Shown here: piece by piece, positions 44 to 462 of the stretch
Numbering within the stretch: position 1 is the stretch's first letter
Layout of the letters: each line of letters starts with the position of its first letter
Origin: Eledone cirrhosa
Lineage: Eukaryota
Assembly (NCBI GenBank): GCA_964016885.1
Contig: OZ024746.1
Location: forward strand, 4,712,001-4,776,000
DNA: 64,000 nt
Reading direction: 5' to 3'
Notes under the pieces: model-generated
Databases searched by the model: none
What the model was told of the DNA's origin: nothing
What the model saw: only the letters and a program-made list of their open reading frames with translations
Translations under genes and position numbers: made by a program

Positions 44-79
44 CTTTTGAAAAGCAGAAGAACTGCGAAACCGGTAAAG
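44..79 (+). ncRNA. Minimal type I hammerhead ribozyme motif, U3-A8 core variant
   Basis: CUU-UUGAAAA-GCAG(AAGAA)CUGC-GAAA-CCGG-UA/AAG; palindromic stem III (ACCGGU); stem I only 3 bp. Confidence 0.6.
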
Positions 80-462
80 GAACCACATAAATATATATAT
101 TTTAAAAAAAATAAGACTCCAGTTGCATTTGCGATTTCATCTTTTTTTTCTTTATACTTTCACTCGTGTAGGACACCTCGGTTATTTTTCATTTTGTAAA
201 AAAACCTCACTTTCTTATATATATATATATATATATATATATATATATATATATATATATATATATATATATATATATATATATATATATATATATATAT
301 ATATATATATATATATATATATAAGAAAGTGAGGTTTTTTTACAAAATGAAAAATAACCGAGGTGTCCTACACGAGTGAAAGTATAAAGAAAAAAAAGAT
401 GAAATCGCAAATGCAACTGGAGTCTTATTTTTTTTAAAATATATATATTTATGTGGTTCCTT
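77..462. repeat. Perfect palindrome: about 140-bp arms around a (TA)n tract
   Basis: 77-216 is the reverse complement of 323-462; ORFs 123..332(+) and 207..416(-) are identical. Confidence 0.95.

Follow-up and report, generated by a model that had tools for sequence, protein, structure and literature searches.

A minimal U3-A8 hammerhead in a high-copy Penelope-like family of Eledone cirrhosa and an inverted arm that ends at its predicted cleavage site

Penelope-like elements (PLEs) with an endonuclease (EN+) of the Neptune/Nematis type are described, in the available part of PMC8557442, as combining RT with a C-terminal GIY-YIG domain and a CX4CX2C motif in the linker; they carry partial-tandem pseudo-LTRs (pLTRs) with a hammerhead inside, an optional tail, an inverted 5'-truncated copy at the 5' end and a preference for microsatellite targets, and the same source calls the function of the hammerhead in EN+ PLEs unclear. 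The family that we describe here from Eledone cirrhosa resembles them in all these traits; its tail has ~60 nt, against 30-40 nt in those elements, and, unlike them as far as that part goes, about half of its copies are pieces of 150-210 nt from one start site. For the ribozyme, the closest relatives in the portions consulted are the minimal hammerheads of the Cercyon PLEs of Schistosoma mansoni (PMC4209133), which share with ours a type I minimal core in which the U3-A8 swap was already published, a naturally occurring active hammerhead variant (PMC3088659), as well as a palindromic stem III predicted to act as a dimer. Stem II differs: it is bulged and 7-8 bp long in Schistosoma, whereas here it has 4 bp and lacks a bulge at 9/10.1. 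On the other hand, Poseidon of Anolis carolinensis has two internal RT start sites that define its tail, much as we propose below; its cleavage is dispensable in vitro, and the section of PMC11167929 available to us records no RNA ends at the cut. Penelope of Drosophila virilis starts transcription in the upstream pLTR (PMC2377424, in part), and for both Poseidon and Penelope the unprocessed RNA is given as the main template in vitro. Finally, a preprint seen in excerpt (bioRxiv 10.64898/2026.07.22.740005) describes non-LTR retrozymes, short non-coding hammerhead repeats related to PLE pLTRs as are the present copies, which form head-to-tail tandem arrays, whereas the Eledone repeats lie scattered and result from the truncation of a coding element.

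The hammerhead and its parent element

The window, that is, the whole stretch of 64,000 nt that was analysed, starts at G000:C6:4712001, and positions 44-79 of its plus strand hold a minimal type I hammerhead, a predicted self-cutting RNA of a known kind. Its letters follow the minimal type I pattern, (C/U)UGAN(G/A)A ... GAAA ... NUH, with a stem II and a palindromic stem III: the core U47 U48 G49 A50 A51 A52 A53 is followed by stem II (GCAG/CUGC, loop AAGAA), GAAA, the palindromic CCGG and the GUA triplet, which places the predicted cut between 76 and 77, just as the original prediction had read it. Direct reading also confirmed the claimed stem I of only 3 bp (CUU/AAG), formed by C44-U45-U46 and A77-A78-G79. 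The Rfam scan returned no hammerhead at gathering score for this motif, and the monomer folded no better than its shuffles (z -0.6); in the folding of a dimer two copies were joined by ACCGGU pairing with stem II retained. A poor monomer fold together with an ACCGGU dimer would be as expected for a minimal hammerhead.

Conservation was counted over 158 distinct matches, with L001-L030 left out. U3 was found in 112 of the 114 family copies with a base at this position and A8 in all 115, so that U3-A8 is the fixed state in this family. Since a search for a C3-G8 version with the same stems gave no match genome-wide, the covariation between U3/A8 and C3/G8 that was to be looked for among the copies is not seen within the family; the view that the swap is other than random decay holds nonetheless, on its fixation and on the covariation reported in the consulted parts of PMC4209133 and PMC3088659. 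Two subfamilies are told apart by positions 42-43, A43 leading to a 3-bp stem I (74/115) and C43 to one of 4 bp (41/115). Stem I is thus a further point of difference from the Cercyon-type hammerheads, with 3 bp at 44-79 and 4 bp in the sister subfamily.

The hammerhead lies in the pLTR end of a Penelope-like retrotransposon, which occupies 5-215 on the plus strand, from the main 5'-end hot spot of the family to the end of the tail. A 27-nt tag from this segment (115-141) has 10,966 exact matches in the 3.0-Gb genome and its reversed control none. Positions 5-215 are 96% and 94% identical to the two pLTRs of L109 (G000:C1:36503369-36509910, minus strand), a full-length but broken copy whose ORF contains one frameshift and one stop. 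L109 runs from a pLTR through the ORF (RT motifs, CX4CX2C linker, GIY-YIG) and a long 3' UTR to a second pLTR, the two pLTRs standing in direct orientation around the ORF (354-836 vs 5270-5751, 98%) and the ATG lying ~30 nt past the tail end. The ORF matched the Pfam GIY-YIG profile with 24.5 bits against a cut-off of 22.6 (E 3.5e-5) and RVT_1 weakly, under the cut-off (E 0.0023); the NCBIfam profiles gave sub-threshold matches only. The CX4CX2C motif precedes GIY-YIG in L109, L065 and L115. RT with a C-terminal GIY-YIG, direct pLTRs, an optional 3' tail and inverted 5'-truncated copies are the marks of EN+ PLEs, and a CX2-5CxxC linker between RT and EN together with microsatellite targeting, seen here as (TA)n flanks, those of the Neptune clade. 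As judged from its sequence, the element is therefore an EN+ PLE with a linker of Neptune/Nematis type, Nematis having the same linker, and, in agreement with the original prediction, a retrotransposon. A candidate identity as non-LTR retrozyme was discarded, the copies being parts of a coding element, scattered or inverted, and not non-coding head-to-tail units that each carry a hammerhead.

Besides L109, L065, L115 and L075 are near full-length; the parent ORF starts with an N-terminal region of ~330 aa without a Pfam match, and its 3' UTR has an internal repeat of ~350 nt. At L041 and L045 GIY-YIG-like ORF ends of another element were observed beside family copies.

Copy ends and the RNA template

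Ends were counted in 101 copies, namely the first 100 of the 10,966 tag matches (C1, 0-38 Mb) and one from their flanks, without L001-L030, whose G-rich look reflects a ranking bias. Among them, 5' ends fall at 2-14 in 51 copies, further upstream in 35 and at 59-113 in 15, with position 77 being used once, and 3' ends fall at 156 in 29 copies and at ~215-216 in 61. We infer that these two precise 3' ends are RT start sites, delimiting between them the optional ~60-nt tail (157-215, plus strand). The genome-wide counts of 5' ends, which come from anchors of unequal length and give rough ratios only, were 1,249 near 1-9 (with an A/T flank), 207 in 64-79, 141 in 75-83 and 64 in 40-54. The hot spot at 2-14 is likely the transcription start, because in L109 it is located 80 nt past a CCAAT and because, by analogy, transcription of Penelope in D. 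virilis begins in the upstream pLTR; as a cap signature, a G preceding A5 was weakly represented, in 5 of 26 rows from the 1-9 end set. Given 51 of 101 starts at 2-14 against one at 77, most templates appear to have been uncut, and most of the short copies would have been reverse-transcribed through an intact hammerhead, in line with the main use of unprocessed RNA reported for Poseidon and Penelope in what is at hand of PMC11167929 and PMC2377424. Unlike in those two elements, again within these excerpts, the present hammerhead lies entirely before the ATG and a candidate intron has no spliced genomic copy.

At the 5' hot spot, head-to-head pairs of copies (positions 4-9 of the window; elsewhere e.g. 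L074, L086, L096 and L105) are repeatedly joined by an almost perfect hairpin whose loop is 1 nt, which suggests snap-back priming at the cDNA end. The candidate intron just mentioned owes its look to a GT after CCG and to a pyrimidine run up to an AG (74-171); as an intron with GT at 74-75 and AG at 170-171, overlapping the cut, it was not supported, with no spliced copy in the genome. PLEs keep introns, and for this reason the absence of spliced copies does not exclude one.

Origin of the inverted arm

In the assembly, 77-269 and 270-462 form a perfect inverted repeat with arms of 193 nt (100% identity), each made of ~54 nt of the central (TA)n and 139 nt of unique sequence, so that the palindrome claimed for 77-462 is confirmed, as is its meeting the predicted cut within 1-2 nt. 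The outer end of the arm is ambiguous by 1 nt: it is 77 if the target ends in T and 78 if it ends in A. From left to right, the locus consists of a junction (1-4) to a head-to-head inverted copy of 5-156, the pLTR fragment, the 108-nt target microsatellite (TA)n at the palindrome centre (216-323), the perfect inverted copy of 77-215 on the minus strand (324-462) and another (TA)n at the outer junction of this arm (463-497). The head-to-head copy adjoins the window upstream as a third arm (G000:C6:4711847-4711998, minus strand), 96% identical to 5-156; it corresponds to the inverted 5' copy that PMC8557442 describes for PLEs. The downstream arm carries the locus-private C86, G131 and extra T142. 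All three arms have the rare C86, which occurs in 1 of 86 other copies, and they therefore stem from one insertion; G131 and the extra T142 are present in the forward and downstream arms and absent from the upstream sister arm, which argues that the downstream arm was copied locally and later. Read in this way, 324-462 appears to be a later local duplication of 77-215.

Fold-backs of this kind are found at other (TA)n tracts. In 530 kb, 14 of 888 tracts had perfect flanking inverted repeats of at least 10 nt; 3 of the 14 were simple GA/GT repeats, several lay outside the family element and reached up to 51 nt, and the mismatch-free arm of 139 nt described here was the longest. Fold-backs thus also copy ribozyme-free DNA. 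The family itself has 34 further tail-to-tail palindromes with a spacer of up to 40 nt, all of which were examined: none ends at 75-79, 26 have short arms ending at 182-204, most arms are of 12-33 nt, and the 8 long ones end at ~6, 21, 55, 60, 66, 87, 89 and 167. Five of these 8 long pairs differ by 5-11 substitutions between arms and may be separate insertions instead of fold-backs, which would make the comparison set smaller. At L216 the element and ~110 nt of host flank are duplicated with one substitution in the element part; this duplication stops at the following (TA)n and suggests that copying took place at the level of DNA. Inverted duplications of host DNA with (TA)n in the middle, often reaching as far as the following (TA)n, were observed at L216, L054 and L009, ~1 in 100 of the tracts sampled, and such duplications are generic in the sampled DNA. 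Fold-back at (TA)n as a mechanism is taken from general knowledge and from these tract, tail-to-tail and L216 data; our literature search found no report of it.

We therefore consider it probable that 5-215 is a short high-copy Penelope-like insertion and that its 324-462 arm arose from a later DNA fold-back in (TA)n, ending at the predicted cut by chance. Element RNA would have been transcribed from a start near 5; RT, primed at a (TA)n nick, would have started inside the RNA at 156 or 215 and run through the uncut hammerhead to the RNA 5' end, and snap-back at this stop would have produced the upstream head-to-head arm. Once the copy had mutated, a 3' end lying within the self-complementary (TA)n would have folded onto its own strand, been extended along 139 nt of it and returned into (TA)n. 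One of 9 long arms (this one included) in the cut class has a chance probability of ~0.19, or ~0.35 for 75-78, and the end of the arm at the cut site, to which the original prediction attached a meaning, is thus within chance for (TA)n fold-backs. One point against a chance ending is that the arm stops in the class where the family's 5' ends reach their local maximum (25/99 for classes 75-83).

The original prediction had instead seen the second arm as possibly cDNA: RNA read through this locus, cut at 76/77, would have been copied from its 3' product into the adjacent (TA)n, with run-off at the ribozyme-generated 5' end. This accounts for the private alleles and for the end at 77/78, and both the stand-alone insertions of 77-215 and the local peak of 5' ends at 75-78, described below, speak for it. 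The locus, however, has the head-to-head arm in the place of the upstream CCAAT region, its stem I has 3 bp, a perfect tail-to-tail partner was found in none of 49 loci with ends at 75-79, and no other arm of the 34 stops there; moreover, published minimal PLE hammerheads cut poorly and the anole element lacks RNA ends at the cut (PMC4209133 and PMC11167929, in the portions available). We regard this route as unlikely and a fold-back as the likelier source. That arms are 100% identical including homopolymer lengths would also suit a fold-back artefact of sequencing or assembly, and no contig among those listed spans the outer junction, which for a multi-copy repeat speaks neither way; two switches would then be required to regain unique flank, and similar structures in the assembly show aged differences between arms (L207, L208, L216), which makes an artefact quite improbable. 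Cut-site-truncated copies and diverged tail-to-tail pairs do exist, and an independent truncated copy might have inserted tail-to-tail and been homogenised later by gene conversion in the hairpin, but all 139 nt would then have to be converted, and the upstream palindrome, which has no spacer, was not homogenised (3 substitutions plus indels); we give such an origin very little credence. With the (TA)n fold-back as the preferred origin of the arm, there is nothing unusual in the locus, a folded-back piece of a pLTR whose hammerhead variant and inverted anatomy were already known.

A minor peak of 5' ends at 75-78

Among the rarer truncations, 5' ends peak at 75-78, at ~4-6x the background. In the first 100 of the 141 rows of the 75-83 set, taken at maximal extension and tallied by eye, classes 75 to 79 hold 19, 6, 25, 14 and 11 ends and classes 80 to 83 hold 1, 5, 5 and 13, with 1 ambiguous; class 77 is the top class (25/99; P 6e-5 vs uniform), whereas the largest class in the region 40-54 has at most 7 of 64 rows. 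Of the ends with pure (TA)n flanks, 28 of 33 in this set and 20 of 37 in the 64-79 set fall in 75-78. Scaled genome-wide, class 77 would amount to ~41 copies, or one for every ~30 that start at the main hot spot. Many of the 49 loci picked for ends at 75-79 are stand-alone insertions of the form (TA)n-[77..215 or 156]-(TA)n with normal 3' ends. The expected pile-up of 5' truncations at the GUA site is thus present as a minor, family-wide excess at 75-78; the main pile-up lies at 2-14. For Poseidon, in the text of PMC11167929 that was available, RNA ends at the cut were not detected, and in the Eledone family genomic 5' ends are in slight excess there. We found no description of a pile-up of genomic 5' ends at the hammerhead of a PLE in the literature searched, which covered few subscription papers.

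It is conceivable, and we propose it tentatively as somewhat short of an even chance, that this excess and the stand-alone insertions of 77-215 record cleavage in vivo, in which case ~3-4 of every 100 short templates would have been cut and the rest copied uncut. The peak could also come from RT pausing or from (TA)n microhomology: the stretch 75-78 is an AT island, to which (TA)n could readily be joined, RT might stall at the ACCGGU duplex, whose end lies at 75, and class 77 lumps true 77 and 78 ends. The comparison of the cut-site class with the analogous AAA at 68 (11 vs 5, P 0.11) is not significant and likewise leaves room for a source other than cleavage, as does a second hammerhead family, an underpowered replicate in which ~15 of 29 rows were true copies, the cut class holding 1 of their ends and +6/+7 holding 8.

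This second hammerhead, at 16924-17000 on the minus strand, has a canonical C3-G8 core, a long stem II, a CCUUUGG stem III, GUA and an 8-bp stem I, lies head-to-head with an inverted partial copy (~17003-17150) between (TA)n runs, and likely belongs to another PLE family. A (TA)n run is also found beside a tRNA-like sequence at 2953-3024 (Rfam tRNA, 50.1 bits), which may be a SINE head.

If the reading of the 75-78 excess as cleavage is true, it would provide an in vivo cleavage fraction for a ribozyme of EN-bearing Penelope elements. In this family of ~11,000 copies, the 5' ends indicate that mostly uncut RNA was copied and hint that a small part had been cut, and the same count of 5' ends could be applied to any high-copy PLE family.
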